From positions 8,769-72,768 of the forward strand of contig DASWUU010000155.1 of assembly GCA_036401515.1 (NCBI GenBank): 64,000 nt of DNA, written 5' to 3'. Shown here one piece after another: positions 23,011 to 55,241 of this stretch (the stretch's first letter is position 1; each line of letters begins with the position of its first letter). The notes under the pieces are model-generated. The model saw nothing but the letters and a program-made list of their open reading frames with translations, searched no databases and was not told the origin of the DNA. Source of the DNA: Steroidobacteraceae bacterium. Lineage in GTDB: Bacteria > Pseudomonadota > Gammaproteobacteria > Steroidobacterales > Steroidobacteraceae. The position numbers were made by a program, and so were the translations under genes.

Positions 23011-23074
23011 CAATGGATACTGGATGCCCTCGACAATCACACCAGAATCACGGCGGCCGCCGCGCAGCTGTATT

Positions 23075-23512
23075 TCAAGTGGAGGCAATGTCGTCGCGAG
23101 AAAGTTCGGGTACCGGACTACGAGCAATAGAGCACCCAGTATTCAATTCGCCATGAAGACGCTGCAAGACTATCATTTGCTTGCGCAATTCCCGGCTTTC
23201 TAATCGCAACATGTAGCGTGCGTCGCCGGCGTTGTCGCCCAAACTTATCGCAGCGCGATCGCGCGATTCAGCGCGGCACCGTAACGAATTAATTTCCCCC
23301 GCTAGCATATCGCTCGCGTTTGCTGGGCTCGCTACTCTTCGGTGAAGACAACCTTCATTATCCAACTCCGAGTCATCGACGACCAGCTGCGTTTCCATGA
23401 CAGGCTCACCGCGGCCACGAATGGCCTCCAAAGTAGCTCGGTAATTCGAAACGGCCATCGTGCCCGTCTGAGTGTCGAAGCGAGTGAACAAATAAATATA
23501 AGCGTCGCTCAT
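23075..23512 (-). CDS. hypothetical protein (no recognisable motif)
   Basis: 145 codons from ATG 23512 (MSDAYIYLFTRFDTQTG...), with a weak RBS. The 3' end overlaps the non-homologous tail of the Tn3 ORF. Confidence 0.3.
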   Translation of the reverse strand: MSDAYIYLFTRFDTQTGTMAVSNYRATLEAIRGRGEPVMETQLVVDDSELDNEGCLHRRVASPANASDMLAGEINSLRCRAESRDRAAISLGDNAGDARYMLRLESRELRKQMIVLQRLHGELNTGCSIARSPVPELSRDDIAST

Positions 23513-23690
23513 AACACTCTCTGATGCAGGACCTACCACTGTAACTGTTACAAATGATTTCGTCCGTGCGGTGTCGCACATAGCCACACGCGGCAGGACC
23601 TCTGTTGTCGCGATTTGTCCCAGGTTATTCCTGCGCGCAAGGTTCGCACAGAGATTGCCCTGAAAAATGGTCTACACTCGGGGGCTTGAT

Positions 23691-23912
23691 TTAAGTCAGG
23701 ACTACTGATGCAAAAGAGCCCATCAGTCGATCGCTCATCGAAAGGCGCTGGTATAGCGCGCGTTCCCGCTCGGTCAGGAGCTGGCGCTTGGCCTCGAGCG
23801 GCCAGGGATTCGCGAATAAGCTGTCACCCGATTTGAGTTTCTTGGCGAAGGCGCCGAGGATTGCGGCAACCACCACGAGCACTATAAGAAGAACAAAAAG
23901 AGGGCTGTGCAT
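23691..23912 (-). pseudogene. DUF2726-type protein, N-terminal stub only
   Basis: MHSPLFVLLIVLVVVAAILGAFAKKL (TM), then PWPLEAKRQLLTERERALYQRL, which is the usual start of DUF2726 proteins. The domain itself is missing. Confidence 0.4.
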
Positions 23913-24029
23913 GCGCCCTATCTTATATTGATAAAATATGAGGCTGTTGAGAAACGCCCAGTTCCGGGGCATTCGCGCCGCGATGCTATGCGCCAGGTCG
24001 GAGTGACTACACGGGTTTGGGAGTCATTA

Positions 24030-24980
24030 CTAGGCTGTGAGTGCTTCGCGATTTCTGGATTCGCAATGTTTGACCAACCTTTTGATGTTTTGGGCGGTTG
24101 CGGCCATTAGCATTTGTTCTGAGACATGCCGTAGCCGACGTAGCCTAAGTCTACGAAGATTGATTTGCTCCTTAAGCTCGCCAAACAGCGATTCGATCCG
24201 TCGCCGCTCGCGCTGCGAGCATCTATACGCGTCGGTAGTCGCGAGCTCTCGTGCGCGGTCTCGGACCGGTTCAAGCCAATGTCGCAGGAGCGTTCGGCCC
24301 CTACCAGTCGTGCACTGTGTTTTAAGCGAACATCGACCACACCCATTCTTCGGCACACGGTATATGTCGGACTTCGACGGTCGCGTACTACCTACGCATA
24401 CAAGCTGCTCGCCGGCAGGGCATATGTAACAGTTGTTCTCCGGGACAAAGCGGAAATCCTTTCGCGTGAACGCCCCCGTCGTTTGCTTATAGCGATCGAG
24501 AACAGGGATGTGAGGTTCTATGCCTTTGTCGAACACCCACGCTAGAAAGTCGCCCGTGCCATAGCTTGTGTCCGCCGCGAGAACACGAGGAGTGACGCCG
24601 AGGCGCGACTTGATCCGCTCGATCATCGTACGCGCGGCAACAATTTCTCGGCTGAGCCTCGCTGTAGTCGGTTCGACATCCAAGATTACACGGTGAGCAT
24701 TGTCGATCAGATAATTATCAAAATAGCCTAAAATTGCGGCTCCGGTGCCTTTTGTCGTGTAACAAGCGTCTGGATCGGTGGTGGAGACGGTCGCTGTCGC
24801 GGCGCCCTTGTCTGTAGTATCAAAGCCGCTTGGTCCAGGGTCGAGCTCGTCCACCGGATTCAACGTCTCTACTTCCGTCAAGAATTCGCGAACCGTCTTA
24901 GAGACTTTCGCAGCTTCCGCGAGCTCACAGGCTTTCACGCGGCTTGTCCGGCTCAAGCACATCAACGACACGCGCGGCCA
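24030..24980 (-). mobile_element. IS1182-type (IS5-superfamily) DDE transposase, 5'-truncated
   Basis: STTDPDACYTTKGTGAAILGYFDNYLIDNAHRVILDVEPT...VLAADTSYGTGDFLAWVFDKGIEPHIPV...CYICPAGEQL...CGRCSLKTQC...RERRRIESLFGELKEQINLRRLRLRRLRHVSEQMLMAATAQNIKRL. The N-terminal ~100+ residues of the family are absent. Confidence 0.75.
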
Positions 24981-25044
24981 CGCTTCGATCACGATTGGAC
25001 ATATATCCGATCGACGCAAGAGTTCCAGCGTCAACCGCGATGGC

Positions 25045-25470
25045 GCTCTCGTCTGTGGCAACTTGGCGTCCAGCCGATCCCACGGTTGGGCACTCGAAAC
25101 CCAAAGTTCAACCACCGGTTTAAACCAACTAGGATCATTCAGCGTTCCCGCCTTAATCGCGGCGCATCCGGATCCCGCCCTGGCCACCCTCGCAGGCGTT
25201 CGGGTGATCTCGGTGGATCGCCCGGGAATCTGACAGTCCTCTCAACTCAGGAATCGAGCATTATTGAATTGGCCAAGGGACGTCTCTGAAATAGCAGACA
25301 AATTCGGAAGCAAGCGATTCGGGGTCCTAGGCCAGGCTAGCCGATCGGGTTTCCGTCGCACGCTTGTTTTCGTGAGCGCCTCGGTTCGCGACAAACAGGC
25401 GATTGCGTCCATGCCCACCGAAGTGAAACGCGTGGCGATCACTGCCCAATCTGCACCGGTCTTTCTGCAA
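25045..25470 (-). pseudogene. GFA-family (glutathione-dependent formaldehyde-activating-like) relic
   Basis: The C-terminal piece SGCAAIKAGTLNDPSWFKPVVELWVSSAQPWDRLDAKLP is read in the same frame as the IS1182 relic. An upstream piece CRKTGADWAV... is in another frame. Confidence 0.45.
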
Positions 25471-25672
25471 GTGAGCTTCTGGAATCATTGCCGGCAGATC
25501 CGAGAGGATGCCGACTCTTTGCTGCTGAAGTCGATTGACGATACTGTGTCAGGCAGACCAAGATATCATTCGTGTTCCGGCGAGGTGGCGAATTTACCCA
25601 GACAGTGCGCTATGTAGTCTGCGTTATCTTGCGATTACACGGCTAAAGCTTCCGACATTGTCGAGGTCCAGC

Positions 25673-26713
25673 ATGAAAGAATGGTCGAACACTTCTGAAG
25701 AGAGCCGTTCAAGTGGCAACAGTCCGCATCACCCCAGTACAGTTTTCGTAAGTCGAGCCTTTATTCGATTCTTGAACCTAGCTGCGCTTACTTGTGCTCT
25801 CTCGGTGTTAGCGACATTGACGGACGCACACTCTAGTCCATCCCTCTCTCACGGTGACCCGAGAACAAGTCCACAAGACGATGCCCCGTGTGAAATCTGC
25901 TTCTACGGTCCGGATAACATTGCGTTTGATGCCGACGAAAATGCTTACGTAACAGACGGAGACCAATCCGCACGCTTTCGCGTGCTAAAGATATCTGCGT
26001 CCGGCAAGAAGCTTATGGATTGGCACGCATTCATGGTGGCACCGAATCGGCGAAATGGTCCGGAAGGCATTGCGGTGTCAAATCAAAACGAGATATTTGT
26101 CACCGACGGTGGGGCCCTGCAAGTCATAAAGTTTTCAGCGCACGGGAGGCCAATGATGCGCATTGGAGATAAGGCGCCCGTATTCCAAGATTTAGGTCAC
26201 GTCGCCGTGGACAAAGCCGGTAATATTTTTGTCGCAGAAGGCGGCGTTAATCGAATCCAGCAATTTTCACCTCGCGGTAAGAGGCTCACAGTTTGGCAAA
26301 AACCTAAAGGCCATGGCGAGAATGAGTGGAACATGCCCGAAGGCATCGGTTTACAACCTAATGGCAACATTGTGGTTGAGGACGCGGGGAATCAGCGAGT
26401 CCTGATCGTGAACGCAAATGGCGACACTGTTTCTTCAATTGATCTGAAACACCTAACTCCGCACTTTTCTGCTGGGTTGGCGGTGGATGCGATAGGGAAC
26501 ATCTATGTTGCCGACGATAAATTGCACAGTGTGCAGATGTTTGATCCTAAAGGATCTTGGATTCGCAATATTGCAAACGGCGACCACGACTTACTGTTTC
26601 GCAGCGGGCCTACCAGCATTAGTGTCGGCCCCCACGATATTCTCTATGCAGCCGACGGCCGGACCGTAGTGAAATTTACCGTGGACGGTGAACTGCTGGG
26701 CCGCTGGCGATAG
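25673..26713 (+). CDS. NHL-repeat beta-propeller protein, secreted
   Basis: ATG 25673. Hydrophobic segment LNLAALTCALSVLATLTDA. Six repeats of the type GPEGIAVSNQNEIFVTDGG.LQVIKF / LGHVAVDKAGNIFVAEGGVNRIQQF / MPEGIGLQPNGNIVVEDAGNQRVLIV / GLAVDAIGNIYVADDKLHSVQMF. Confidence 0.8.
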   Translation: MKEWSNTSEESRSSGNSPHHPSTVFVSRAFIRFLNLAALTCALSVLATLTDAHSSPSLSHGDPRTSPQDDAPCEICFYGPDNIAFDADENAYVTDGDQSARFRVLKISASGKKLMDWHAFMVAPNRRNGPEGIAVSNQNEIFVTDGGALQVIKFSAHGRPMMRIGDKAPVFQDLGHVAVDKAGNIFVAEGGVNRIQQFSPRGKRLTVWQKPKGHGENEWNMPEGIGLQPNGNIVVEDAGNQRVLIVNANGDTVSSIDLKHLTPHFSAGLAVDAIGNIYVADDKLHSVQMFDPKGSWIRNIANGDHDLLFRSGPTSISVGPHDILYAADGRTVVKFTVDGELLGRWR

Positions 26714-27129
26714 AAGAGGCCTCACTACACCGGGCGCTTTCGGATAGATCACCTTTTAGAACCGATAGTTCGCCATCGGCTACGTTCGAACGGATTACTT
26801 CGTTTGCGAGAACAGACAAACAATGATCTGGCGGGAGCAAAGATGTTGGTGCGCAGCCTGCACGGCGTTTCGACACCGTTTTTGGTATCAGGCTAGAGAG
26901 TACCGCTGCTTCGAGAAGGGGTTTTACCGATTTCCACGACGATGTGGAACACGGGTCGCAGGAGTTTGGGGTAGGAGTAATTTACGCGCCGCTCAGGCAG
27001 CGCCTTCCGCTCACTTCTGCCGCACAGTATTTATACGATTCGTTCAATTGTGACGGCGCGGAAGAAACCGATCAACAAAACCAGCGAGGCGACAGGGAAT
27101 AGAACCGACGCCCGTCGAAGTCACAAAGA

Positions 27130-27480
27130 TTAGTCAGCAGTCGAGTTTTGATGCGACGTACAGGAAGGTTTACCGACTGCGGACAATTGTGCAGCGAGCT
27201 CGGTTAGCAGTTGTTGGAAAGTTTCCAGTTCTGAGTTACTGAACGTTTCCATGACCATATAGAATTTATCCTTGCCGCTCTGCAAGGAAGTTGCAACTCA
27301 ACCTTTTCTTTGGTTCCGATCTCGACGCACACGTTCCAACAAACCACGTCCGTTAACTGATCTATCACGCGGGTGAGCGCTCCGCAACTTCGTAATGCGG
27401 CTTCGGCATTGGCCAAAACTCTTGAAAATCGGTCAGTTCCGTGAAGCTGCGAATGAGTCGATACGCGGCCGCTGAAAAGT
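27130..27480 (-). pseudogene. MarR-family regulator relic (frameshifted, N-terminus overlapped by the neighbouring gene)
   Basis: LANAEAALRSCGALTRVIDQLTD(R)GL.. (wHTH). A shift leads to SRSEPKKRLSCNFLAERQG (wing), and another to GKDKFYMVMETFSNSELETFQQLLTELAAQL. Confidence 0.35.
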
Positions 27481-27515: not shown

Positions 27516-29531
27516 TTAGCTCACCCGAGTAGCCTGAAATCCGCATTGAGCCCATCCATCTCGCTGCTTCACCCAAATCTGAGTTGCCACCGCATGCATT
27601 TCGACCGTGTCACCCGTTTGCACGATACGAATAAGCTGCTTGAGTGGACCCGTAACGATGGCTGTTGCACCGATCATGCGTATATCCAAGGAGGGACGTT
27701 CCACCTCGATAATCTCGAACTTCGTGGCCATCGTTGCCATATAAGAGGCCTTGTCTTCCACAGTGCCGTTGGCATGCACGTGAACTAGATCGTCGCTCAG
27801 AAGCGATTTCAGTGTGGGCCAATCTTTGGACACCAAGGCCCTGATGCGCCTGTCCTCCAGTTGCCGGATCACAGTGTCGGTATCTTCAGCCACAGTGTCG
27901 CCGTCCGATGCAGCCGCAGTCAGAGTGCCCGAAGCCTGCGCCAACAAGGCATCGCAATGTGCCGGCAAATTATCGCCCCTCCAGGCCACATGCTGATCGG
28001 GTCGTATGAGTGCGAATCGAGCCTGGTACCGCGCGCGTAAGCGCGAATCAGGAGGCAAAATCACCGCGAGAGGAATGTTTTGGGTCTCGGCAGCGGCGAT
28101 CATCGGCGCAGCGTCGGATCGCGGCTCACTGGTGACTAACAGTGTAAAGCCCGGCCCAAAGTGGTCGTAAAGCGAGGATCCGTCGTCGAGCCAGAGATGC
28201 GGAGCCAGACATCCGGGATACGCTGACGGAACGTACAGCGTTGGATTTTCCGCCGGCGGCGAGGCGTCATCGGGCAAAATTAGAGGTGATTCGTAACGCG
28301 AACCCAGGACGACGCCGAGCGTCTTGAACTCTCGTATCTTGATTGCGAGGATGAGCTCGGATACCTCGTTGCGGGTTGCATCCCCAGCAATGCCCACGTC
28401 TTCCAGGCCTGGTCGGACGAGCTGATTGCCGACTGCGCCGTAGTTATGCACCGCCTCGGCAATCGTGCGCTGGTGTACCGCACGCCGCTCTTGCGCGTAC
28501 GAGGGCAATAATGCGGGTCCTCCCCAGCCTTGCAGGGTGGCGGCGATCTTCCAGCCCAGATCCACCGCATCACCGATGCCCATGTTCATGCCAAAGCCGC
28601 CAAAAGGCGGATGCAGATGACAAGCGTCTCCCGCAAGCATCACGCGAAGCGTCGCATATCGGTCTGCGATTAACTGCTGAGCAGTCCAAGGAAAGTTTGC
28701 GACCACCTCGATTTCAAGATCGCTCAATCCGGAAGAGCGTCTGATAAGATCGACGGGATTGAGCGTCGCCGGGTCGACATTGTTGGCCAACTTGGTGGCG
28801 ATAAAAGACCACAAGCCGTTCTCATCGAGGGGGCTCAATACCGAAGGGACATCATCGTTAACCATCCAGTACATAATTGCGGGACCGTGCGCATGTCGAG
28901 CGGACAGAGTCGGGGCACGGAATATGGTGTTGTAGTTGCGAAATGTGCCGCGATCTCCCTGCATCGTGGCGCCGATTCCTTCCCGTACCGTGCTGCGCGC
29001 GCCGTCCGCGCCGACCAAATAGCGGGCGCTCATCGTACGCGACTCGCCGGTGCTCACATTCCTGAGTACGGCGGAGACGCTTTCGTCAGATTCGACGAAT
29101 GACAGGAGTTCCGTATTGAAGGCCAATGTCACCCCGGGGAGCGAAGTCGCGTGGGTTCGCAGTACTTCCTCCAAGACGTACTGCGGTACCCACTGCGCCT
29201 CCTCTGAATACAAATTGTTGCGCTCGCGGGAGCCGTTCAAGGCATTTTCAAAGCGCGCCAATTCAGGGCCGTTCATTCGCGTGGCAAAAATGATGGTCGA
29301 CGGATAGTCAGGAGACATCGGGGAAGCGGCGCGCAGAGCGTCGGCTATTCCCCAACGTCGCAGATGCTCACGAGTCCTGACATTAGTGGTTTTTGCTCGC
29401 GGGCTATATCCAACCCGATCATTGCGTTCGACCACCACGCACTTGATGTTGCGCTGACCCAATTCAATGGCAGCGGCGAGGCCCACCGGACCGGCCCCGG
29501 CAATCAGTACATCGACTTGACTGTCAGTCAC
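27516..29531 (-). CDS. PheA/TfdB-type FAD-dependent aromatic monooxygenase fused to a C-terminal NTF2-like (DUF4440/SnoaL-like) domain
   Basis: GTG 29531 overlaps the upstream stop (GTGA). VDVLIAGAGPVGLAAAIELG, RAKTTNVRTREHLRRWGIA, GADGARSTVRE, GDACHLHPPFGGFGMNMGIGDAVDLGWKIAATLQGWGG. After ...RPDQHVAWRGD come a linker (AAASDGDTVAEDTDTV) and a 120-aa IRQLEDRRIRALVSKDWPTLKSLLSDDLVHVHANG...VWVKQRDGWAQCGFQATRV domain. Confidence 0.85.
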   Translation of the reverse strand: MTDSQVDVLIAGAGPVGLAAAIELGQRNIKCVVVERNDRVGYSPRAKTTNVRTREHLRRWGIADALRAASPMSPDYPSTIIFATRMNGPELARFENALNGSRERNNLYSEEAQWVPQYVLEEVLRTHATSLPGVTLAFNTELLSFVESDESVSAVLRNVSTGESRTMSARYLVGADGARSTVREGIGATMQGDRGTFRNYNTIFRAPTLSARHAHGPAIMYWMVNDDVPSVLSPLDENGLWSFIATKLANNVDPATLNPVDLIRRSSGLSDLEIEVVANFPWTAQQLIADRYATLRVMLAGDACHLHPPFGGFGMNMGIGDAVDLGWKIAATLQGWGGPALLPSYAQERRAVHQRTIAEAVHNYGAVGNQLVRPGLEDVGIAGDATRNEVSELILAIKIREFKTLGVVLGSRYESPLILPDDASPPAENPTLYVPSAYPGCLAPHLWLDDGSSLYDHFGPGFTLLVTSEPRSDAAPMIAAAETQNIPLAVILPPDSRLRARYQARFALIRPDQHVAWRGDNLPAHCDALLAQASGTLTAAASDGDTVAEDTDTVIRQLEDRRIRALVSKDWPTLKSLLSDDLVHVHANGTVEDKASYMATMATKFEIIEVERPSLDIRMIGATAIVTGPLKQLIRIVQTGDTVEMHAVATQIWVKQRDGWAQCGFQATRVS

Positions 29532-30370
29532 GGGATTGCAAAGAGCAAGTTTGGGGGCCCGACGGCTTTCAATTCGCGAAGCATCAAACGAAGTTCGCTT
29601 GCGAAAGTTGCGGCGTCCGCCTGATAGGACAGATGGTGTCCGGAAATTACTCGGTGGACGCATCCCACCACGTCGCTGACTATTTTTGCTGTCCGCGCAT
29701 AGTAGGCATCCTTGCTGTCGCGCCCCGAAACCGCAAACATAGGAATCTTGGTGTGCTTGATGCGCTGTAGATCGGGAGCATAGCGGCTGAAATTGTGTAT
29801 CTCATGGGCAAAGAAGAAATTCCAACTCACTTCCACCGCCTTAGCCGCATCTGAGCCCGTCGGTGGTCGGCTTGGGGGTGTGACTCCCACCAGCGCGCTG
29901 GCAAACTTACCGAGGGCTGGCCCAAATCCGCGAGCTCGAAAAATCGTCTCCGCCTCGTCGCCAAAGATAAACCACTCCTGAGCGTCGGGCAGAACCCAAA
30001 GAACAGGGGGCTCGTGCGCAACCAAGCCGGCGATATACTGCGGCGTGTCCTCCGCCATCTTCAGGGCAATATTTGCCCGCGAGCTGCTCCCGAAAACTAG
30101 TGCTTGCTTCGCATTCATTGCCTTGATCACTGCGACCGCATCGCGCGCTTGTTGCGCGATATCCCCGTCGAGTGAACGATCGCCCGTGCTGCGCGAATTG
30201 CAACGGCGGTCATAGCAAACAACCGTGTATTCGTCCTTTAAAATTGTCGATACGGCTGCATAGCGCTGCCCCGAGCCGCCGGCACCAGGAATGAGCAGAA
30301 GCAGCGGCCCTTCGCCTTCATAGTCAATGTGAATTTCCGCGCCTTCGTTCTCCACTGTCGCGTTCGTCAT
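29528..30370 (-). CDS. alpha/beta hydrolase (atypical nucleophile elbow)
   Basis: ATG 30370 overlaps the upstream stop (ATGA). LLLLIPGAGGSG..VVCYDRR; the elbow reads LVFGSSSRANIAL; ...AHEPP. Confidence 0.75.
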   Translation of the reverse strand: MTNATVENEGAEIHIDYEGEGPLLLLIPGAGGSGQRYAAVSTILKDEYTVVCYDRRCNSRSTGDRSLDGDIAQQARDAVAVIKAMNAKQALVFGSSSRANIALKMAEDTPQYIAGLVAHEPPVLWVLPDAQEWFIFGDEAETIFRARGFGPALGKFASALVGVTPPSRPPTGSDAAKAVEVSWNFFFAHEIHNFSRYAPDLQRIKHTKIPMFAVSGRDSKDAYYARTAKIVSDVVGCVHRVISGHHLSYQADAATFASELRLMLRELKAVGPPNLLFAIP

Positions 30371-31236
30371 GTGCCGTCTCCTGACGAAGGTCTTTCCACT
30401 GCGCATTGTAGAGCGAAGCCCAACTGCTGCAGCTGCAAAGCAGGGCCGACAGCGTGCAACTCCATACAGTGACCGGTATTGCGGATCATGGCGGCGTCCA
30501 CGCGGGGTGCAGCAGAGAAACGCCGCGCGAACGCTTCAACTTCGTCTTTATCTACGATCCACAGTCGGTCCTGCTCCGCCTGCCGGTAATGCACGGGAAC
30601 GCGCACGCTGGAGCAGATCGCTGCGGCTTGCGCCTGCCATCCGCCGACGATGTCGATAAGCTCTGCTTTGGGCACTGGTGCATCGGTGGCGTGGCTTGCT
30701 GCCGCTACGGCAGGGTCAAAACTGCCCGGGGGCCCGAACATCAGCTGGTCCTTAACTGCCGCAGGCATCTCAACGGTAGGCAAATCCGGGAGTGAGTTCC
30801 ACATCGCAGAGTGCGCGGCGGGCGTTCGTACGCCGATTCCTGACACGGCAATGCCCAATAAAGGGAGTTCTCCGGGATTGCCGGCCACGCCGAGAGCGAT
30901 AGCAGCGCCGATCGAATGACCGATCAAGACAACGCCATTCGCATCGGCGCGGTACTGAGTCCAAACGTCGTTGAGTGCGCCGCTGAGGAGTGCCGCCTGC
31001 CCGAGAATGCTCATGTCGTCGATGAACGGCGTCTTGCCATATCCGTACCGATCAATTGCGATTGCCGTGATTCCATTTCTTTCAGCCTGATCCAGCAGCG
31101 AATGACCGTCGACATCGAAGTACGCGGAGGTATAAGTTCCACCGTGAATAGCGATAACCAGTGGTCGCGTACCTCCCGACGCCTGTGAGATGGAAGCGCG
31201 GCCGCTAAAGACGCCGAATCGTCCTGTCGCTCTCAT
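30367..31236 (-). CDS. alpha/beta hydrolase
   Basis: ATG 31236 overlaps the upstream stop (ATGA). LVIAIHGGTYTS, elbow VLIGHSIGAAIAL, C-terminal NTGHCMELH. Confidence 0.8.
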   Translation of the reverse strand: MRATGRFGVFSGRASISQASGGTRPLVIAIHGGTYTSAYFDVDGHSLLDQAERNGITAIAIDRYGYGKTPFIDDMSILGQAALLSGALNDVWTQYRADANGVVLIGHSIGAAIALGVAGNPGELPLLGIAVSGIGVRTPAAHSAMWNSLPDLPTVEMPAAVKDQLMFGPPGSFDPAVAAASHATDAPVPKAELIDIVGGWQAQAAAICSSVRVPVHYRQAEQDRLWIVDKDEVEAFARRFSAAPRVDAAMIRNTGHCMELHAVGPALQLQQLGFALQCAVERPSSGDGT

Positions 31237-32729
31237 GGCAGACTGTCCTGTGCGCGGGTTTCGAGCGCATCAAGGTCGGCCCGGCTGAGATAACGTCCGG
31301 CACGGACCACTGCAGATACCCGGTGCAGGTTCGCAATAGCCTTGGTCGGATCGGCGTCGAGGAGTACCAAATCAGCGTTTTTCCCGCGCTCGACCGTGCC
31401 CATGGTTGTTTCGCGCTGCAGAAACCTCGCCGGATCAACCGTCGTCATCTGCAAAACGCGAAGGGGTGAGACCCCTGCTCGGGCGAGCAGATCGAATTCG
31501 TGATGCAACGAGAATCCCGAAACGATCCACTGACCGCCGAAGTCGGTGCCGGTCAACATTTTGACACCAGCTTTATCGAAGAGCCCAGTGAGTCGCAATT
31601 GGGTCTCGAACAACTCTGCCAGCAGCTTGCGCTGATCCGGCGTCAGCTTTTCGTCGAATTCGTTGCCGACATCCCGCCAAAGTGCACGCGACTCGGTAGG
31701 CGCGTAACGCTGATCCGGATTGTCCCTGAGAGCAGGCGTGTTGCCCAATTCCATCGCCTCCAGGCGTGTTAGCGTCGGCACCATCCAGGTTGAGCTCGCC
31801 GCCACTTCTGCGGCAAAGGCACGACACTTCTCTCCATCGTAGGTCTCAAGCACGCGGTGCATGAGCGCGAAGCCTTGGGGCGGAGTGAGCAGAAGCGGGT
31901 TCGCGAGCATCCGCCGCACCTGTTCAGGTTCGGCGTTGAAGTGTGAACCGCCGCCTGAACCCAACGGAATCGCGGCAATCATTGATCGGAGGGCAGCATC
32001 GTCGCGCGAGCAGTTGAGCAGCAGGGTAATGCCGGGTCCGAGATGTTCCACTGAGTTCATTCCGCGACGAATGGCCTCCCGCGCATCTAAGGCCAAGGGA
32101 AGATGCCCGGAAATGGGCAGCCCGTTTTCTCGCGCGGCGTCCTCCGCGGCAAAGAAAGCGGCCGGAGGCACATCGATCACCTTGATGAAATCCGCGCCTT
32201 GCGCTTTCTGGCGGCCGATCTCCGCAACCGCCGCGGCGGGATCGGCGAATGCCGCGCCGGCGAGGATGGTCCCCGGCATGGCGAGCAGGGCCGGAGAGTC
32301 GGGCGGCATCCGGGTTTTGCGGGCTGCGCGCTTCGCCAACAGTTCCGGTGAACCTGCCATCTGGCGAAAGCCTGTGACGCCGTTCGCGAGCATCAGCGGC
32401 AGGCTCGTCTCGGGGCTCTCGGTATTGAGGTTGTGCGCATGCATGTCATTGAAGCCGGGAACGACGAAGCGACCATTGCCTTCTATGAGTCGTCCCGCGC
32501 CGGTCACCCGGACGGTGCCGCCGCGCGCTACCTCGACAATCTTGCCGTCAGCAACGACCAGGGCGCGATCCCGCACCAGTTGTCCGGTGCGGACGTCGAC
32601 GACGACCACGTGGTCGAGTACAAGGCCTGTGCGAACGGTTTCCGGCTGCGCGGCGCCCGCGCGGCCGACGTTCAGTGCCACTAGAAGACCCAGCGCTCCC
32701 AGGTCACGCGGTCGCAAGTGTGACTTCAT
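31233..32729 (-). CDS. metal-dependent amidohydrolase (COG1228-like), periplasmic
   Basis: AGGAGAG then ATG 32729. Signal MKSHLRPRDLGALGLLVALNVGRAGAA. Then VVPGFNDMHAHN, ...SVEHLGPG..., TGTDFGG, GTVERGKNADLVLLDADP. Confidence 0.85.
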   Translation of the reverse strand: MKSHLRPRDLGALGLLVALNVGRAGAAQPETVRTGLVLDHVVVVDVRTGQLVRDRALVVADGKIVEVARGGTVRVTGAGRLIEGNGRFVVPGFNDMHAHNLNTESPETSLPLMLANGVTGFRQMAGSPELLAKRAARKTRMPPDSPALLAMPGTILAGAAFADPAAAVAEIGRQKAQGADFIKVIDVPPAAFFAAEDAARENGLPISGHLPLALDAREAIRRGMNSVEHLGPGITLLLNCSRDDAALRSMIAAIPLGSGGGSHFNAEPEQVRRMLANPLLLTPPQGFALMHRVLETYDGEKCRAFAAEVAASSTWMVPTLTRLEAMELGNTPALRDNPDQRYAPTESRALWRDVGNEFDEKLTPDQRKLLAELFETQLRLTGLFDKAGVKMLTGTDFGGQWIVSGFSLHHEFDLLARAGVSPLRVLQMTTVDPARFLQRETTMGTVERGKNADLVLLDADPTKAIANLHRVSAVVRAGRYLSRADLDALETRAQDSLP

Positions 32730-32783
32730 TCGAAACTCTCCTGCGTACAAACACGGCACCTTGCTCGCGCTGCCGCGATCTTG

Positions 32784-35225
32784 TCAGCGTCCAAACCGTG
32801 CAGAGACACGGAGGCCAAATGTGCGTGGCGCCGTGGTACCCACGGTGAGAAAATTCGCAGTCGGATGGGTCGAGTTGAACACCTGGACACGGTTGTCTTC
32901 GATGTTCTGGACGTAAGCGGCAATGGTCCAATGTTCGCTCGTCGGGCCGAATGATAGTTGGGCATTGGTTACCCAGTCCGCGGCAGCGACCTGCTCAGGT
33001 AAGTAGGCAAAGCCAATCGCGCGACTGCTCTTGTATTGCGTATCGACTCCGGCGATGAGCCGGTAGTTGCCGAGCGGTATCGTCTGCTGGCCGGCGAGGT
33101 TCACTGTCCATCTTGGAGAGTTATAGGAGGGTTGCCCCGCGCAGTTGATCAAGTAGGGTGAAGCGTTGGCGACGGCATAGGTGACCTGGCAGCCCGTAAG
33201 CGGCGGGGTGCCAGGGCCCGCGAGATAGCTGAACTGCAGCTGCTTGGCGTCGAGATACTGAAGGTCGGCGCTGAGAAGTGTCGTCGGTGTGGCCAGAAAC
33301 CGAGCTTCGACTTCGCTGCCCTCAATGCGTGACTTGCCGACATTCTGCGTGTAGTTCGCGGTCTGTCCGTGGATATCGAGACCGACGTGATTGACCTGCT
33401 GGTTGGTGTAGTTCCACAGAAACGCTTCGAGGTTCAATTGAACACGATTGTCGACGAAGCGGTTTTTCGCTCCAAGCGTGTAGGCTGTGATGTACTCCGG
33501 CTGATAGGTCTCGAATCCTGCTGCGGCCGAGAAGCCGCCAGAACGGTAGCCTGACTCGACACTCGCATAGAGAAGCGAACTTGGCGTGAGATCGAACTCC
33601 GCAGCCCCGCGATACGTCGTTCGACTGCTGGAGAGATTCCGGTTGATCCTGCTGTCAGTACGGATAATGAGATAGTTCGGAGGACCTGGCGATGTAAAGA
33701 CTGGGATCGGAGGCGCGCCGGCAGCAGGAAAGGGAAAGCCTAGCTGTGCCGATTGGTTGAACAGCGGTACGTACGGCGCCGTCGGACAATTGGGTGCGCC
33801 GAACGCGTTTACCGCGAGACAGTCCACGATAGCAGTGATTGCAGAATAGTTGAAGCTCTTGTCGTCCTTCGTATAGCGCAGACCGCCCACGAGTCGAAAC
33901 CGGTCAGTCAGGTTCGCGACCAAGCGGCCAAAGCCCGCATAGGACTTCGTGCCCAAATCCTGATCGATGTAGTTGCCCAGGTTGGAGAGGGACAGCGATA
34001 CGCGCTCATGAATCGTTTCATTGTAGAAGAATCCGCCGACGGTGAAATCGAAGATGCCCACGCGAGTTGCAGCGAAGCGGGCTTCGAGGCTGGTCTGATC
34101 GTCGGTCTCAAGGTCCTGATAGGCGAACGCAGCTGCGGGCGCGAGATAGTTCAATTCAGCGTGCCGGAATGCGGGAATGACAGTCACCGTGCCGGCAGCG
34201 GAATTTTGCTCGATATCGGCGTTGAAGCCATAGAAGCTGTTGTCCTGATAGGGATATGGCGCAAGAGCATTCAGCGTGCTTCCGTAGGGTCCAAACGGTG
34301 TCGCTTGACGATAGGCTTGAGACGCAGCGCCGAAAACTCCACCATCGTTGGGAAGTCCCGATGGCAGGAAGGTGTAATAGTTGGTGCCTGGCACGGGAGT
34401 CGCTGAGCGCGGGACCCGCGGGTTAAATGCATAGCGTCCGTCGTAGTTGACGCTGTTACCGACGCCGCCGTCGTGAGAGTAATCACCGGCCACACGTACC
34501 GTCAGATCGGGCGTGAATTCCGCCTTCGCTTGCAGACGCACTGCCCAGGTTTTTTGGTCATCGGTCCCGTCTCTGAAGTATGCATCATGATTTGCCGTCG
34601 TGGCGGACGCCCGCAGGGCAATCTTGTCTCCTACAGGAACGTTGATCGCGCCTTCCGCGTTAATAGTGTTGTAGTTTCCGTAGGTTAATGTGGCGTAGCC
34701 GGACGCTTCCCCCAGCTTTGGCTGGGCGGGCAGCACGTTGATCGCACCGCCCGTCGCGTTGCGGCCGTACAAAATGCCTTGGGGGCCTTTGAGCACCTCG
34801 ATGCGATCGAGATCATAGAACACGCCGGTGGTGGAGGTGGGTCTGCCGACATAGACACCGTCGTAGTTAAATGCGACTGCAGGATCGCTTGTTGCGACCA
34901 AGGTGAAATTGCCGACCCCACGGATAAAAATCAAATTGCCGGTGCTGCTGGGCTCGATCGACAGTGCGGGTACGAGTTGGTTTAGGCGATCCGCCTGGGT
35001 AACCCCGGCGTTCGTCAGAGCAGCGCCATCAACGATCGACAGCGGTATCGCGGCGTGCTGCGCACTTTCGGACTTACGCTGGGCTGTTACAATGATCTCT
35101 TCGAGCTGATTCCCGCCATTCGTGGTCGCGCTCGTCTGGGCGTTGGGCACCGTCTGCGCGAACCCCGTTGCCATAAAAAGCGCGAGTGAGGCGGCGATGG
35201 GGATTAAGTGAAGTCGCGTAAACAT
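32784..35225 (-). CDS. TonB-dependent receptor
   Basis: Signal MFTRLHLIPIAASLALFMATGFA. TonB-box/plug region QLEEIIVTAQRK...IEVLKGPQGILYGRNATGGAINV, followed by a long beta-barrel ending ...RTFGLRVSARFGR. Confidence 0.9.
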   Translation of the reverse strand: MFTRLHLIPIAASLALFMATGFAQTVPNAQTSATTNGGNQLEEIIVTAQRKSESAQHAAIPLSIVDGAALTNAGVTQADRLNQLVPALSIEPSSTGNLIFIRGVGNFTLVATSDPAVAFNYDGVYVGRPTSTTGVFYDLDRIEVLKGPQGILYGRNATGGAINVLPAQPKLGEASGYATLTYGNYNTINAEGAINVPVGDKIALRASATTANHDAYFRDGTDDQKTWAVRLQAKAEFTPDLTVRVAGDYSHDGGVGNSVNYDGRYAFNPRVPRSATPVPGTNYYTFLPSGLPNDGGVFGAASQAYRQATPFGPYGSTLNALAPYPYQDNSFYGFNADIEQNSAAGTVTVIPAFRHAELNYLAPAAAFAYQDLETDDQTSLEARFAATRVGIFDFTVGGFFYNETIHERVSLSLSNLGNYIDQDLGTKSYAGFGRLVANLTDRFRLVGGLRYTKDDKSFNYSAITAIVDCLAVNAFGAPNCPTAPYVPLFNQSAQLGFPFPAAGAPPIPVFTSPGPPNYLIIRTDSRINRNLSSSRTTYRGAAEFDLTPSSLLYASVESGYRSGGFSAAAGFETYQPEYITAYTLGAKNRFVDNRVQLNLEAFLWNYTNQQVNHVGLDIHGQTANYTQNVGKSRIEGSEVEARFLATPTTLLSADLQYLDAKQLQFSYLAGPGTPPLTGCQVTYAVANASPYLINCAGQPSYNSPRWTVNLAGQQTIPLGNYRLIAGVDTQYKSSRAIGFAYLPEQVAAADWVTNAQLSFGPTSEHWTIAAYVQNIEDNRVQVFNSTHPTANFLTVGTTAPRTFGLRVSARFGR

Positions 35226-35754
35226 GGATTTCTCTCCCAAGTGTCTTTTATTCGGCTCGCCAGTTCGCTGGTGGAACGCCGTTCTTTATGAATCGTGCCA
35301 GCAAGCAAAATTTCCTTTCCTGTGGATTGGCATGCGATGCCAATGAGGAAGACCCGGACCATTGGGGTTTTTGCGAGCGGCGGCGCCGTGTAAGGAATAT
35401 TCTCGAAAACCAGAGCGCCATCAGCATTCCGGTCCGCACCCACAATGTAGCCTTGCGGTTACCAGCGCTCGGCGGTCGAGCGCCGCAGGCTCGGCTAGTG
35501 CCGTCAACGCGGACATGATCGTCAGCGAAGCTGCCAGCATGATCCGCGGCATCGATGTCATCACCAAGCCGACCCCCATTTTTTTAATCGCCGAGCCAAC
35601 TACGAAAAAGTATCACCAGGTGTTGGCGGCGAGGAGATAGCATCATTGCGCGTGCGATGCTCAGAACACATCGCCCCCAAAATATAGGCTACCTGTACAC
35701 TCCAACCATACGTCGCCTTGCGCAGAGCCTGTACTGCAGATTGAAGGGGGAGTA

Positions 35755-36555
35755 GTGATGAGTCTCGACAACATTTACTTTACCCGCTGGGGCGATACCG
35801 GTCCGCGCGTCGTTTTGGTTCATGGCAGTGCCCAGGGCAGCAAGGTCGGAGGTGCTAGGCACTTCGCGCGCCAAGCGCATCTTGGCGTACAAGGTTGGCA
35901 GTTGATTGTTCCCGACCGACCCGGCCATGGCCGCAGCCCGTCACCCGGGCGCCCTGATGATGCTGAGGCCGATGCGGTGTGGGTTGCACAATTGCTCGGA
36001 GACGGTGCCCATCTCGTCGGCCATTCATTCGGCGGCACAGTGGCGCTCGCGGCCGCGGCGCGCAGGCCCGAGGCAGTACGCTCACTGACCGTGATCGAGC
36101 CGGCGATGCTGCCGCTCGCGATAAAAAGTCCGCATGTACGCCGCGTGATCTTGAGCATGATCTCGATGCAAATCTTCTCGCTGTCGGACGCGTCGCGCGC
36201 GCGCAAGATCTCTCGGCTGCTGGGTATACCCGACGAAATCCGGGGCGAATCGGACCATGCCGAGCTGACCGCGGTAGGGCGTAGCCTGAGGAAGCTTAAG
36301 GTACCTGCGAAGGCTGACATTCAGCGCGAATTAATTCTTATCCGCGACGCCAACATTCCGCTGATGGTCGTGACCGGCGGCTGGAGCCCGGCGTTCGAAG
36401 CGACCAGCGATGCCGTGGCGGCGTTGGGAGGCGGTCGCCGCGTCGTCATCCAGTCTCCGCATCACTTTCCGCAAAATATCTCAGAAGAATTCAATGCGAC
36501 TCTTGTCGCTTTCATGCGCGAAGCTGATGCGAGTCGTGCAGTCGCGGTGGTCTGA
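35755..36555 (+). CDS. alpha/beta hydrolase
   Basis: GAAGGGGGAG then GTG/ATG 35755/35758. VVLVHGSAQG, PDRPGHGRS, elbow HLVGHSFGGTVAL, C-terminal SPHHFPQ. Confidence 0.8.
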   Translation: MMSLDNIYFTRWGDTGPRVVLVHGSAQGSKVGGARHFARQAHLGVQGWQLIVPDRPGHGRSPSPGRPDDAEADAVWVAQLLGDGAHLVGHSFGGTVALAAAARRPEAVRSLTVIEPAMLPLAIKSPHVRRVILSMISMQIFSLSDASRARKISRLLGIPDEIRGESDHAELTAVGRSLRKLKVPAKADIQRELILIRDANIPLMVVTGGWSPAFEATSDAVAALGGGRRVVIQSPHHFPQNISEEFNATLVAFMREADASRAVAVV

Positions 36556-36574: not shown

Positions 36575-37427
36575 TTAAGCCACCACGTTTTCAATGACTC
36601 CGATGCCCTCAATTTCGCAACGGACTACATCGCCTTTTTTTGGAAATTGAGGAGGCTTCATGCCAATCCTAGCGCCATCCGGTGTACCGGTAGCGATAAG
36701 ATCCCCTGTTTCAAGAGTGAATGCGGTTGATAGGTAGCTGGTTTGTTGCCAGATGTTGTAGATCAATTCGGCCGTAGTGCTTTCTTGGCGCTTGACGCCG
36801 TTTACCAGGCAGCGCAGTGCGAGATCATGCGGGTTGGGCACTTCGTCCGCAGTCACAATCCATGGGCCCTGGGTCCGTGAGTATCGAATGATTTGCCCAC
36901 TGTGAACGTCGGTGAATGGAACTGCCAGTCACGGGCGGTAGACATCGTTCGCCACGAAGTAGCCGAATACATGGCTGCTAGCGTCGGCTTCTTGGACGTG
37001 TTTCGCAGGCGCGCCAATCATGCCGCCGAGCTCGACCTCGTAATCGAGCTTCTCGGTGACACCGGGCCCAATCGGGTCGAAGGGGCCCGAGATGCAAGAA
37101 GTCTGCTTTGTTGAATCACAGCTGCTGCTTCGGGGCCGGTACGCCGAGACCCACCGCTTCCTCGAGGTGCTTGCGATAATTCATGCCGATGGCGAGGTAC
37201 TTACCTGGTCGCTCGATGGGTGCAAGCAGCCGGACCGAAGCGAGTGGAATGCTGGCTTGGGTCGTTGAGATGTGCGCCGCCAACCGCTCCAGCGCGGGAG
37301 CGCCCCCAGACACGACGGCTTGAATGGTCGGGAATTCACGGTTCAAGGCATCTAGGGGTACGATGCTTTCACCCTTCAGTGCGCCCAAGTAAATTCTACT
37401 GGCTTGCTCGTATCTCAAAAATCGCAT
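36575..37427 (-). pseudogene. fumarylacetoacetate hydrolase (FAH)-family gene with three frameshifts
   Basis: GGAGAAAAAG then ATG 37427, MRFLRY...LLAPIERPGKYLAIGMNYRKH...PKQQL* (TGA at 37116-37118). The next frame reads KQTSCISGPFDPIGPGVTEKLDYEVELGGMIG...VFGYFVANDV, ending at TGA 36929-36931. The block STARDWQFHSPTFTVGKSFDTHGP is in a third frame. Reading then returns to GPWIVTADEVPNPHDLALRCLVNG...GDLIATGTPDG. Confidence 0.7.
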
Positions 37428-37661: not shown

Positions 37662-38240
37662 ATGCCGCACGTCAAACCGATCAAATTCGCGCATGTCGTC
37701 TATCGCACGCGACGTTTTGAGCAGATGGTGCACTGGTACAAAACGGTGTTCGATGCCAAGGAGCAATTCAAGAACGAAATGCTGGCCTTTGTCACCTACG
37801 ATGATGAACACCACCGCGTCGCCTTGGTCAATCTTGGGGTGTTGGACCCGGGAGGCGCGCCGACGGAACGGCGTGGCAAGATCGGTGTTGATCACGTGGC
37901 ATACACCTACCAAACCTTGCGCGATTTGCTCGAGAACTATGCGCACTTGAAAGCTCTCGGGATCGAGCCTTACTGGGCTATTCACCATGGCGTCACCGTA
38001 TCACTCTACTACGCCGATCCCGACGGCAATCAGATGGAATTTCAAGTCGATAGCTTTCCAACCAACGAAAAAGCCAATGCTTATATGTATGGCCCCAATT
38101 ACGCCGCAAATTCGCTGGGAGTGGAGTACAACCCCGATGAATGGCTCACGCGCCTTCGCGCTGGCGAACCGGAATTGGGAATGCTTTTGCGCAGTAGGGA
38201 TGAGCCGATATCGCCGTTCCGAGGCTCGTTGGTCCAGTAA
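37662..38240 (+). CDS. VOC-superfamily protein (single-module extradiol-dioxygenase-like)
   Basis: GGGGAGAAG then ATG. FAHVVYRTRRFEQMVHWYKTVF...HHRVALVN...GVDHVAYTY...GVTVSLYYADPDGNQMEFQVD. Confidence 0.75.
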   Translation: MPHVKPIKFAHVVYRTRRFEQMVHWYKTVFDAKEQFKNEMLAFVTYDDEHHRVALVNLGVLDPGGAPTERRGKIGVDHVAYTYQTLRDLLENYAHLKALGIEPYWAIHHGVTVSLYYADPDGNQMEFQVDSFPTNEKANAYMYGPNYAANSLGVEYNPDEWLTRLRAGEPELGMLLRSRDEPISPFRGSLVQ

Positions 38241-38403: not shown

Positions 38404-39405
38404 ATGCGCTTGATCGCCGTGGAAGAAGCATTCGCAACCCAGGAATACTTCGACGAATACTTGAAGCTGGCGGAACGCATCGACTCGCCGGCCACGCGCT
38501 ACCTCAAGATGTACTACCGCGGTCCTTTGGTACGTCAATTGACGGACCTCGAGTATCGGCTGAAAGACATGGATGAGCATGGGGTGGACATGCAAGTCTT
38601 GTCCTTTACGGCGCCGGGCGTGCAAGCGTTCGACGCTGCATTGGGCAGTGAGATGGCGGTGCGTGTGAACGATTGTCTGGCGGCCGCCATCAGGGCTCAT
38701 CCAAAACGTTTCGCCGGGCTCGGAGCTATTGCGCCGCAATCACCAGAGCGAGCCGCCCGGGAAATTGGCCGCATCATGCAGGACCTTAAATTGAGCGGGG
38801 TTATCGTCAACTCGCACACCCAGGGGGAGTTCCTGGACGATGAGAAGTTCGCGCCGATACTGGCCGCTGCGGTGGAACACGACGCTCCGATATATCTGCA
38901 CCCAAATTTCCCAGCCGATGCGATGATTGAGCCCTATGCGCGCTACGGAATGATGGGAGCGCTGTGGGGGTTTGCCGCGGAGTGTTCACTCCATGCGGTC
39001 AGAATGATTTTGGCTGGAGTTTTCGATCAGTTTCCAAGCCTTAAAATCGTGCTTGGGCATCTTGGTGAGGGATTGCCATTCTGGCTAGACCGCCTCGATA
39101 ACCGCTACGCAAATATTCTGCGCCGCGGCGGTCTCGAGCCGCTCGGTATGAAACGCCTTAAGCGTCAGCCGAGCGAGTACTTCCGTTCCAATTTCTGGGT
39201 CAGTACCAGTGGAATGAACACACATCCGCCGCTCGAGTTCGTTCTATCGCGACTCGGCGCGGAGCGCATTATGTTCGCCGTTGACTACCCGTATGAACAG
39301 AGCGCCGAAGCAACCGCCTTCATCCGCTCTGCGCCCTTGACCGCAGACGTCCTGAAAAAGGTCGCCCATGAAAATGCCGAGCGTCTGTTCAGAATTCCAA
39401 CTTAA
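38404..39405 (+). CDS. amidohydrolase_2 (ACMSD/LigW-type decarboxylase or hydratase) family protein
   Basis: MRLIAVEEAFATQEY..., GVDMQVLSF, APIYLHPN, VLGHLGEGLPFWL, IMFAVDYPYE. Confidence 0.75.
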   Translation: MRLIAVEEAFATQEYFDEYLKLAERIDSPATRYLKMYYRGPLVRQLTDLEYRLKDMDEHGVDMQVLSFTAPGVQAFDAALGSEMAVRVNDCLAAAIRAHPKRFAGLGAIAPQSPERAAREIGRIMQDLKLSGVIVNSHTQGEFLDDEKFAPILAAAVEHDAPIYLHPNFPADAMIEPYARYGMMGALWGFAAECSLHAVRMILAGVFDQFPSLKIVLGHLGEGLPFWLDRLDNRYANILRRGGLEPLGMKRLKRQPSEYFRSNFWVSTSGMNTHPPLEFVLSRLGAERIMFAVDYPYEQSAEATAFIRSAPLTADVLKKVAHENAERLFRIPT

Positions 39406-39577
39406 ACATGGGGGAGAGGGAGGGCGTCTGGCTTTCGGCGATACAGCAATCACATCGCCGCTCTTCTCAGGCGATGCAACTCAGGCATCGCCGTAACGCT
39501 TTGGGTTCTATCCCCTCGAGACGGACGAATTATGCTGTCGGCTTCCGGGCCTTTTGTCCCGTCGAGGAGCAATCGAG

Positions 39578-40681: not shown

Positions 40682-40776
40682 GCCGCGATGCGCTTCCGGT
40701 ATCGCCACGATAAACTTCGCATCTGGCCGCTTCCTGCGCCATCTGCCAGCTTTACATCGACAAGGGGACTCTTCTC

Positions 40777-42267: not shown

Positions 42268-42290
42268 CTCGCGCAACAGTCTAGAGCCGC

Positions 42291-43733: not shown

Positions 43734-43855
43734 ATCTGTCATGAGCGCGCTCGACGCGCGCTGATACCTGCAACACATCGCTCAGTGCCTTTTGCCATCT
43801 CTGTCGTTGTTCGGCCCACGCTTAGACTTCTTCACATTCTCGGTAAAAGGGAAGG

Positions 43856-45514: not shown

Positions 45515-45518
45515 GCAA

Positions 45519-48224: not shown

Positions 48225-48370
48225 GTTTGACCTCAGCTGATGAAGGTAGTTCGCCGGCCGCCTTTCTCGCAGCCGCCTCGGCGTGCGCTATTGCGCAGAG
48301 GGCATTTAAGGTCCGCCCGACCCATAAGTGGCGGCAGGTTCCCAAAATTCTAAATTTGGTGGCAAAATGG

Positions 48371-48390
48371 CCTATCCGATAACAAATAGG
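48371..48390. promoter_or_regulatory. CCTAT-N10-ATAGG inverted repeat immediately upstream of the LysR start
   Basis: cctatccgataacaaatagg is seen directly. It fits the loose T-N11-A LysR-box idea, but its position 8 nt before the ATG is unusual. Confidence 0.2.
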
Positions 48391-48397
48391 CATCACC

Positions 48398-50320: not shown

Positions 50321-50526
50321 TTACGCTCTCCGCGGATTCGATGTCCCGATTATCCGCATCGGTGCCCCTGCAGTGGATGCCGAAAGCAACTGCACGATGC
50401 CGGAATGGCATCAGCCGCAGAACTTAAGTGATGCCTTTCGAGCATCGATACCGCCATCTCGACATCATCCCAACTGCTTCTCGATGCCTTATGTTGCACG
50501 TCACAACTGACAACTCCGGGAGGCCC

Positions 50527-50983: not shown

Positions 50984-51037
50984 CTTGGCGACAAGGATTG
51001 TATAAACGCGGACCGCATTTTGGTGGAGAGCATTCAC

Positions 51038-52006: not shown

Positions 52007-52236
52007 GTGCTTGGCGGCGAGTAAGGTCGCAACGGTAAAAGCGCCCGTCGGAGAGGCTGACACTCCAACGACATCCACCTGAAGCCAATCATGTTTCGGG
52101 TAAGAGTAGGGGCATCAACTTAAGCTACATGAGCGATTTTCACTGAGAACAAGGACTTATGTAAAGTTCGCCCTGGCCAGCCGTCCCACCAATTTCAATG
52201 TCTTGCAGACATTATCAGATCTAGGTTATTGAACTG

Positions 52237-55191: not shown

Positions 55192-55241
55192 ATCGCACGC
55201 CAGTTGCCATCACCGTGAGGTGTGACGAAATAAGGGGCCCC

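Follow-up and report, generated by a model that had tools for sequence, protein, structure and literature searches.

A receptor-led row of five genes

The window analysed here, a stretch of 64,000 nucleotides (nt) of contig DASWUU010000155.1 from a Steroidobacteraceae bacterium, carries on its minus strand, from position 27516 to position 35225, five consecutive open reading frames (ORFs) encoding a TonB-dependent receptor, a predicted periplasmic amidohydrolase (AH), two alpha/beta hydrolases (ABH1 and ABH2) and a FAD monooxygenase fused to an NTF2-like DUF4440 domain (FMO) (Table 1). The row of five same-strand genes had been announced in a preliminary description of this DNA, and on direct reading all five ORFs are present and intact. 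An independent gene call on L001, a public 9.5-kb contig that contains the identical stretch, sets the same boundaries (813, 498, 289, 280 and 671 amino acids, aa), and the family assignments of the preliminary description are upheld by Pfam and NCBIfam for all five products. We consider it probable that these genes constitute one operon, their co-transcription being suggested by the sequence, and that this operon serves, within a larger locus for aromatic catabolism, as its uptake and peripheral ("upper") part.

The receptor stop codon (a TGA at 32784-32786), the 54-nt spacer with its AGGAGAG motif and the ATG of AH were read directly as first described. In the relative L048, presented below, just 8 nt separate the receptor stop codon from the ATG of AH, so that about 46 nt of the window spacer look like an insertion. 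The following genes are joined by start/stop overlaps, ATGA between AH and ABH1 (31233-31236), ATGA between ABH1 and ABH2 (30367-30370) and GTGA between ABH2 and FMO (29528-29531), exactly as the preliminary description had it, and the GTG start codon proposed there for the monooxygenase is supported by the N-terminus VTDSQVDVLIAGAGPVG, which is identical in the relative L044. Overlaps of 4 nt are the commonest overlap class in bacterial operons, and another one is found in the window at 55188-55191; the three overlaps of the row therefore mark a tight operon and are no oddity. A consensus scan for promoters and terminators detected no convincing internal terminator in the row; it returned no promoter-like site, and its terminator-like matches were no commoner than in shuffled sequence.

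The homology with L048 stops about 115 nt upstream of the receptor gene. Within this conserved leader neither a match to the sigma-70 consensus nor a Fur box was found, and the whole window is likewise devoid of a Fur box. Inverted repeats are present upstream of the receptor gene; as they are not conserved in L048, no operator is claimed. At the other end, the MarR gene noted in the preliminary description is a true relic: it contains an in-frame stop codon and a 10-residue gap, about 186 nt covering its start are gone at the DNA level, and L044 holds an intact MarR gene at the same place. No repeats were found within the window at the borders of the row, and a megablast comparison of the 8-kb region with plasmids gave a single match, of 162 nt in the FMO gene, in Massilia, so that the region is without a close DNA relative among plasmids.

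Table 1. Features of the row and of its surroundings, in window coordinates
Feature	Position	Strand	Remarks
Conserved leader/promoter region 5' of the receptor gene	35226-35340	-	112 nt share 87.5% identity with the sequence 5' of the L048 receptor gene
TonB-dependent receptor, 813 aa	32784-35225	-	Plug and barrel, signal peptide; start agrees with the L001 gene call
Spacer between receptor and AH	32730-32783	-	54 nt; AGGAGAG six nt 5' of the AH ATG at 32729
AH, periplasmic (predicted) amidohydrolase of binuclear-metal type, 498 aa	31233-32729	-	Pfam Amidohydro_1/3
ABH1, cytoplasmic alpha/beta hydrolase, 289 aa	30367-31236	-	Abhydrolase_6
ABH2, accessory alpha/beta hydrolase, 280 aa	29528-30370	-	Abhydrolase_1; FphE-like
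FMO, FAD monooxygenase fused to NTF2-like DUF4440, 671 aa	27516-29531	-	DUF4440 at about 27552-27869, residues 555-660
MarR pseudogene	27157-27424	-	Alignment to the intact MarR of L044 (130 aa) limited to residues 56-129
Terminator-like stem with T-rich tail	27105-27118	-	Consensus scan; weak, such matches no commoner than in shuffles
ABH3, alpha/beta hydrolase, candidate for the ring-cleavage product	35755-36555	+	56-61% identical to the hydrolase of L039-L042
FAH-family (fumarylacetoacetate hydrolase) pseudogene	36575-37427	-	tblastn, two frames, against the intact FAH of L041
One-domain VOC (glyoxalase-family), candidate extradiol ring-cleavage dioxygenase	37662-38240	+	Pfam Glyoxalase
Amidohydro_2, Fe-ADH, aldehyde dehydrogenase, MFS transporter (42291-43733), FMO paralogue (43856-45514)	38404-45514	+	Pfam, NCBIfam
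PDH-E1-like gene (TIGR03186) and LysR regulator	45411-49348	+	NCBIfam; E1-like gene at 45411-48224

Conservation of the row and its two modules

The loci compared with the row are numbered L0xx, and the gene-neighbourhood search proposed in the preliminary description finds its order again in three metagenomic relatives, whose FMO is 88-94% identical to that of the window. L044 (94%) presents AH-ABH1-ABH2-FMO-MarR with all three overlaps kept, L045 (88%) presents AH-ABH1-ABH2-FMO with two overlaps kept, and L048 (90%; AH 85-86%) presents receptor-AH-ABH1-FMO, without ABH2. When calculated against L044 and L045, the ratio of nonsynonymous to synonymous substitution rates (dN/dS) amounts to 0.10-0.18 in each of the four enzymes, and that of the fused DUF4440 domain alone is 0.08-0.25. 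The genes of the row behave as one conserved unit under purifying selection.

The row is also the junction of two modules that occur apart elsewhere. Module A, receptor-AH-ABH1, recurs, down to about 54-75% identity, in the Sphingomonas metagenome-assembled genome L002, in L052 and in L049/50, where a carboxylesterase and an MBL-fold gene are added to it. Module B, the FMO::DUF4440 fusion, is directly followed in L039-L042 and L047 by a VOC of about 200 aa and has a LysR gene and a different receptor upstream; in L039/L040 the gene after VOC encodes an ABH3-like hydrolase, which in L041/L042 is encoded farther downstream. In Bosea vestrisii, an unfused FMO (71% identical) is found in the order LysR-VOC-SnoaL_4-FAH-FMO-TRAP transporter. 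This modular organization raises the question of a recent mosaic, in which modules A and B, joined by rearrangement, would be merely co-transcribed and would act on different substrates. Indeed, the modules are found separately in numerous loci (L039-L042 and L047 versus L002 and L049/50), ABH2 is variably present between them, remnants of Tn3 and insertion sequence (IS) elements lie 2-6 kb away, and the homology with L048 ends close to the receptor gene. However, separated modules are still usually 10 kb or less apart (L049/50, L051, L052, L018), and the joined arrangement persists over a synonymous divergence (dS) of about 0.3-0.6 under purifying selection, and we judge such a mosaic quite unlikely.

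The association of these genes extends to more distant loci. Receptor orthologues (46-88% identity) adjoin AH orthologues in nine other loci, and a PRK06126-type FMO (at least 50% identical) lies within 10 kb in 6 of the 13 long genome loci retrieved with AH as the seed, mostly together with FAH. In Sphingobium fuliginis ATCC 27551 a stand-alone DUF4440 gene comes after VOC-receptor-AH, and a second DUF4440 gene, LysR, a hydrolase and FMO are nearby. On a Massilia putida plasmid (L053), an NTF2-family gene precedes AH between two FMO-VOC-FAH sets, with a porin about 1 kb away, and on a plasmid of the lichen-derived Burkholderia sp. PAMC 26561 (L054) the order FAH-VOC-AH-porin occupies one strand, the porin coming directly after AH; no receptor is annotated at either of these two loci, and a porin is found there instead. 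The preliminary description had supposed a substrate too large for porins. More generally, VOC, FAH and NTF2-like genes, and with them a receptor or a porin, accompany the AH relatives in individual loci of Alpha- and Betaproteobacteria. A homodimeric PDH-E1-like gene (TIGR03186), sometimes accompanied by E2, is present in six loci (the window, L039, L047, L049, L051 and L052), and its product may process a 2-oxoacid generated by ring cleavage. A homologue of AH also occurs in Burkholderia sp. PAMC 28687 (H11); AH homologues are plasmid-borne in lichen-derived Burkholderia and in Massilia.

Products of the row and their relatives

The receptor matches the Plug (PF07715, 8e-12) and TonB_dep_Rec_b-barrel (PF00593, 1e-25) families of Pfam, that is, a Plug followed by a 22-strand barrel, and has no N-terminal signalling extension. 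On inspection, signal-peptide-like N-termini are found in the receptor and in AH only among the five products; the preliminary description had seen an evident signal peptide in AH only. The terminal Phe or Trp of TonB-dependent receptors is part of the beta-signal for outer-membrane assembly. The window protein no longer ends in such a residue: its last residues are SARFGR, two residues beyond the usual Phe with which all seven of the seven orthologues end, the ancestral TGA stop codon having become GGA relative to L048 (window 32778-32790) and Gly-Arg having been added after the conserved Phe. A receptor for siderophores, or for B12 or haem, was considered and rejected, since the best NCBIfam score is 85 bits for a cutoff of 223 (TIGR01783) and no Fur box was found. 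In L048, the receptor gene (506-2945 of that locus) is split into two ORFs of 441 and 377 aa; as the coverage of the contig is about 4.8x, the split may be an assembly error and not a pseudogene.

Among 35 homologues of AH, the residues H97, H99, H209, H229 and D396 never vary and K183 is conserved to at least 90%, which provides, as assigned from the motif pattern and not from a structural superposition, the full ligand set of the binuclear-metal amidohydrolase superfamily (HxH, carboxylatable Lys, His, His, Asp); C240 and C302 are invariant in the same homologues. The AlphaFold2 model (pLDDT 89.7) matches amidohydrolase structures of the PDB at a Foldseek probability of 1.00, the best matches being bottromycin amidohydrolase, the Cc2672 carboxypeptidase, Xaa-Pro dipeptidases, ochratoxin A amidohydrolases, molinate hydrolase and phenylurea hydrolase, at 15-23% identity; by this model, the top matches among the nearest solved structures are all amide hydrolases. 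The ochratoxin A amidohydrolases (ADH3 and the A. niger ochratoxinase), Cc2672/Sgx9260 and PurAH share the fold of AH (Foldseek E 1e-15 to 4e-24) and its candidate binuclear ligand set, and all cleave an amide beside an amino-acid carboxylate. AH differs from them by its low identity (15-23%), by a length greater by about 80-100 residues, apparently in a helical insert, and by its membership of a separate family of about 700 detectable, uncharacterised proteins, none of which bears a functional name.

Since the Lys/Arg carboxypeptidase Cc2672 and the Xaa-Pro dipeptidases are among the nearest characterised relatives of AH, the receptor and AH might be thought to scavenge peptides or amino acids in the manner of the periplasmic Cc2672-type carboxypeptidases of Caulobacter, with no relation to aromatics. 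Against this, AH scores 90 bits for a cutoff of 500 on the NCBIfam equivalog of the Cc2672/Xaa-Pro dipeptidase type (NF051886), with only a C-terminal stretch aligned; the identity is 15-20%, an extra helical insert of about 90 residues is present, as judged by length against relatives of 400-420 residues, and the neighbours are consistently FMO, VOC, FAH and NTF2-like genes. Such a scavenging role is, in our opinion, most improbable.

ABH1, which lies 70 nt or less downstream of AH in L002, L005, L044, L048, L049/50 and L052, is the constant partner of AH. Its HGG and HSIG motifs, D223 and H256 are invariant in 34 homologues and provide the nucleophile elbow and the Ser-Asp-His triad. The best fold match of its AlphaFold2 model (pLDDT 92.6) is the streptonigrin methylesterase StnA (PDB 5hdf, E 8.5e-17), a Ser hydrolase that acts on the methyl ester of an aromatic carboxylate. 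ABH1 resembles StnA by its fold, at about 17% identity and with no sequence-level match, and a function of this type would be deduced from the fold only; sequence searches of the PDB were uninformative for ABH1, VOC and ABH3.

The nucleophile elbow of ABH2 reads GSSSRA, where L044 and L045 have GSSSGA. The Arg stands in place of the last Gly of the G-x-S-x-G motif, a residue kept in 149 of 149 representative homologues, and the window copy is therefore probably impaired. The absence of ABH2 from the row of L048 makes it an accessory, dispensable component. Weak matches link it to zearalenone lactonases.

FMO combines the Pfam families FAD_binding_3, Rng_hyd_C and DUF4440 with the thioredoxin-like C-domain PF21274. 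Its score on the NCBIfam model PRK06126 (590.5 bits for a cutoff of 445) and its GAGPVG and GDACH motifs place it among the group A monooxygenases of PRK06126 type, a family that includes rifampin monooxygenase-like enzymes. It shares its three-domain core with RebC/StaC and with the aklavinone hydroxylase RdmE (RebC 3.5e-87; RdmE model 272 bits), and the match to RebC says little on the substrate. RebC, StaC and RdmE are biosynthetic tailoring enzymes, whereas FMO is found in catabolic contexts, possesses an extra NTF2-like domain and remains below the equivalog cutoffs. In the FMO-seeded search, the fusion with DUF4440 forms eight protein clusters (71-94% identity), accompanied by many unfused relatives of 553 aa at about 72%. 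The two paralogous monooxygenases mentioned in the preliminary description exist, at 43856-45514 and from 62917 to the window end.

The surrounding locus and a proposed route

The row is not a complete pathway, since ring cleavage, an MFS transporter and a LysR regulator are encoded on the far side of the divergent intergenic region. The VOC encoded there is 41-47% identical to the VOC that directly follows the FMO::DUF4440 fusion in L039-L042 and L047. ABH3-like hydrolases come after FMO-VOC in L039-L042 and are found near AH in L003 and L005. The FAH pseudogene, 64% identical to the FAH of L041 over its C-terminal part, is disrupted twice, by a frameshift at about 37110 and by an in-frame stop codon at about 36930; in several relatives an intact FAH orthologue adjoins FMO. 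The MFS protein obtains 311 bits on the AAHS model TIGR00895, below the cut-off of 418.55, so that its label of aromatic-acid/H+ symporter is given by best match only. The preliminary description had seen neither an inner-membrane transporter nor an intact regulator, which holds inside the row; the symporter and LysR are found 0.5-13 kb off on the other strand. Its picture of a dedicated route is not upheld, the row not being self-contained: it joins two modules, ABH2 is dispensable, and the ring-cleavage genes are, like the symporter and LysR, 0.5-13 kb away. The whole window looks like an aromatic-catabolism island.

Elsewhere in the window, the region 49361-64000 repeats a similar gene vocabulary, with an extradiol dioxygenase, a GST-like gene, an SDR, a dienelactone hydrolase, an MBL-fold gene, LysR and SnoaL_4; a small FAD monooxygenase gene (54067-55191) overlaps an MFS gene there by 4 nt, and a second TonB receptor (60256-62463) is followed by the third PRK06126-type FMO, which runs off the window end from 62917. 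Positions 2303-8095 encode a pirin, an SRPBCC/polyketide-cyclase-like protein, another alpha/beta hydrolase and an RPE65-family oxygenase (carotenoid/stilbene-cleaving type). Beyond the operon end, a Tn3-family transposase fragment (DUF4158) and an IS DDE transposase occupy 21575-25187, at 2-6 kb, and an NHL-repeat gene (25535-26713) lies between these remnants and the operon.

From the gene structure, the conservation and purifying selection, the catalytic residues, the fold relatives and the recurrent neighbourhoods, we infer the chemical steps, the type of substrate and the co-transcription of the genes as follows. The substrate would most plausibly be a phenolic amide/ester conjugate. The TonB-dependent receptor would bring this conjugated phenolic compound into the periplasm, where the binuclear-metal AH would cleave an amide linkage, for which the N-acyl-amino-acid or peptide-like type is the likeliest. 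The freed aromatic acid would cross the inner membrane via a transporter outside the row, for which the symporter at 42291-43733 is a candidate. In the cytoplasm, ABH1 would remove an ester of the methyl-ester or lactone type, ABH2 having formerly been an optional second esterase, probably crippled in the window copy. FMO would then hydroxylate the ring, aided in some way by its fused NTF2-like domain, and the one-domain VOC dioxygenase would cleave it, the product being handled by ABH3 and, in relatives, by an FAH-family enzyme.

The same enzymes could serve detoxification: under the control of MarR, the operon would hydrolyse and hydroxylate a harmful aromatic natural product, for instance a mycotoxin or an antibiotic, and so inactivate it. 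In the intact relative the operon ends with a MarR gene, the fold relatives of AH include ochratoxin-detoxifying enzymes, and the zearalenone lactonase matches of ABH2 and the rifampin monooxygenase-like members of the FMO family point in the same direction. Yet an energised importer at the head of the operon argues for acquisition, and the recurrent neighbours (ring-cleavage, FAH, aldehyde dehydrogenase and E1) are typical of mineralisation, which leaves detoxification decidedly improbable in our view.

Several observations speak against the upper-pathway operon we propose. The row being a mosaic of two modules, a joint function is deduced from adjacency, and the inner-membrane step is assigned by proximity only. 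ABH2 orthologues are found only in L001, L044 and L045 and are absent from the otherwise syntenic L048. AH homologues are found in diverse contexts, an FMO within 10 kb being absent from about half of the long loci, and no substrate can be named, all enzymes sharing at most about 23% identity with any characterised structure, FMO and RebC excepted. Moreover, the locus has accumulated lesions: the Arg at the invariant Gly of ABH2, the lost stop codon of the receptor with its two-residue tail past the conserved terminal Phe, the frameshift and stop of FAH, and the deletion in MarR. Together with the transposase remnants nearby, these lesions could indicate that the locus is a decaying remnant, no longer functional in this genome. 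We nevertheless consider this unlikely, since none of the five ORFs is interrupted, some relatives can dispense with ABH2 and FAH, and the changes on the window branch are mostly synonymous (47 nonsynonymous and 131 synonymous, against 38 and 152 on the L044 branch). The substitutions on the two branches being no different, general decay is not shown, and relaxed selection on the window branch was rejected as not significant (Fisher p = 0.17).

The proposed upper pathway resembles several known systems without coinciding with any of them. A precedent for the TonB-dependent uptake of an aromatic compound is DdvT of Sphingobium sp. SYK-6 (PMC6874591). The DdvT/DdvK system of DDVA catabolism combines, as the description of that system indicates, a dedicated TonB receptor, an MFS transporter and cytoplasmic ring-modifying and ring-cleaving enzymes in a locus of sphingomonad type; unlike the present row, it has no periplasmic hydrolase and uses a Rieske O-demethylase instead of a group A flavin monooxygenase (PMC6874591). 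The meta-pathway for the A-ring of flavonoids and isoflavones, encoded by the fde genes of Herbaspirillum seropedicae and the ifc genes of Variovorax, follows a similar logic, with an FAD monooxygenase for the hydroxylation of a polyphenol, a glyoxalase-family dioxygenase for the cleavage of the ring, and an alpha/beta hydrolase and LysR in the cluster (PMC11069340, PMC11303751). However, no periplasmic amidohydrolase or receptor is described for fde/ifc, the VOC is likened to FdeC/IfcB by description only, and the row has no cupin gene like ifcD (ifc composition, PMC11069340). FdeE, a small flavonoid 8-hydroxylase as is IfcA, is a protein of about 41 kDa (PMC11303751), whereas the FMO of the row has 671 aa and is of the PRK06126/RebC type with a thioredoxin-like domain and DUF4440; an fde/ifc flavonoid identity was rejected for FMO, FdeE belonging to a different subfamily, and these systems are kept as an analogy.

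The preliminary description had recognized no known pathway in this gene combination, and our literature searches on PRK06126, on DUF4440, on receptor/amidohydrolase/glyoxalase combinations and on orcinol hydroxylase with extradiol dioxygenase likewise found no described pathway with this gene set. We tentatively put forward, as a possibility to which we give less weight than to the operon itself, that the recurring set represents a widespread, undescribed pathway for a natural aromatic amide/ester conjugate, for example one of a polyketide or phenolic acid of fungal, lichen or plant origin. It would comprise a TonB receptor (in Alphaproteobacteria) or a porin (in Burkholderiales), the AH family, ABH1, an NTF2-like protein, free or fused, a RebC-like FAD monooxygenase, a VOC dioxygenase, FAH or an alpha/beta hydrolase, and often a PDH-E1-like enzyme. 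Its unusual features would be the periplasmic de-conjugation before uptake and the NTF2 domain working with the hydroxylase. An orcinol/resorcylate or depside substrate, brought to mind by Amidohydro_2, FMO, VOC, FAH and the lichen-derived hosts, is a guess from general knowledge and is not claimed.

In conclusion, systems of this kind are not new: sphingomonads commonly possess catabolic loci that are headed by a receptor and combine peripheral hydrolases with flavin hydroxylases. The present one would, if our model is right, add a further case of TonB-dependent aromatic uptake coupled to periplasmic hydrolysis. The substrate is directly testable, since culturable strains carry versions of the gene set: Sphingobium fuliginis ATCC 27551, Massilia putida 6NM-7 and Burkholderia sp. 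PAMC 26561. If the model is right, three uncharacterised components, a periplasmic amidohydrolase family of about 700 proteins, its esterase partner ABH1 and a monooxygenase::NTF2 fusion, would travel together in soil and lichen- or plant-associated bacteria.

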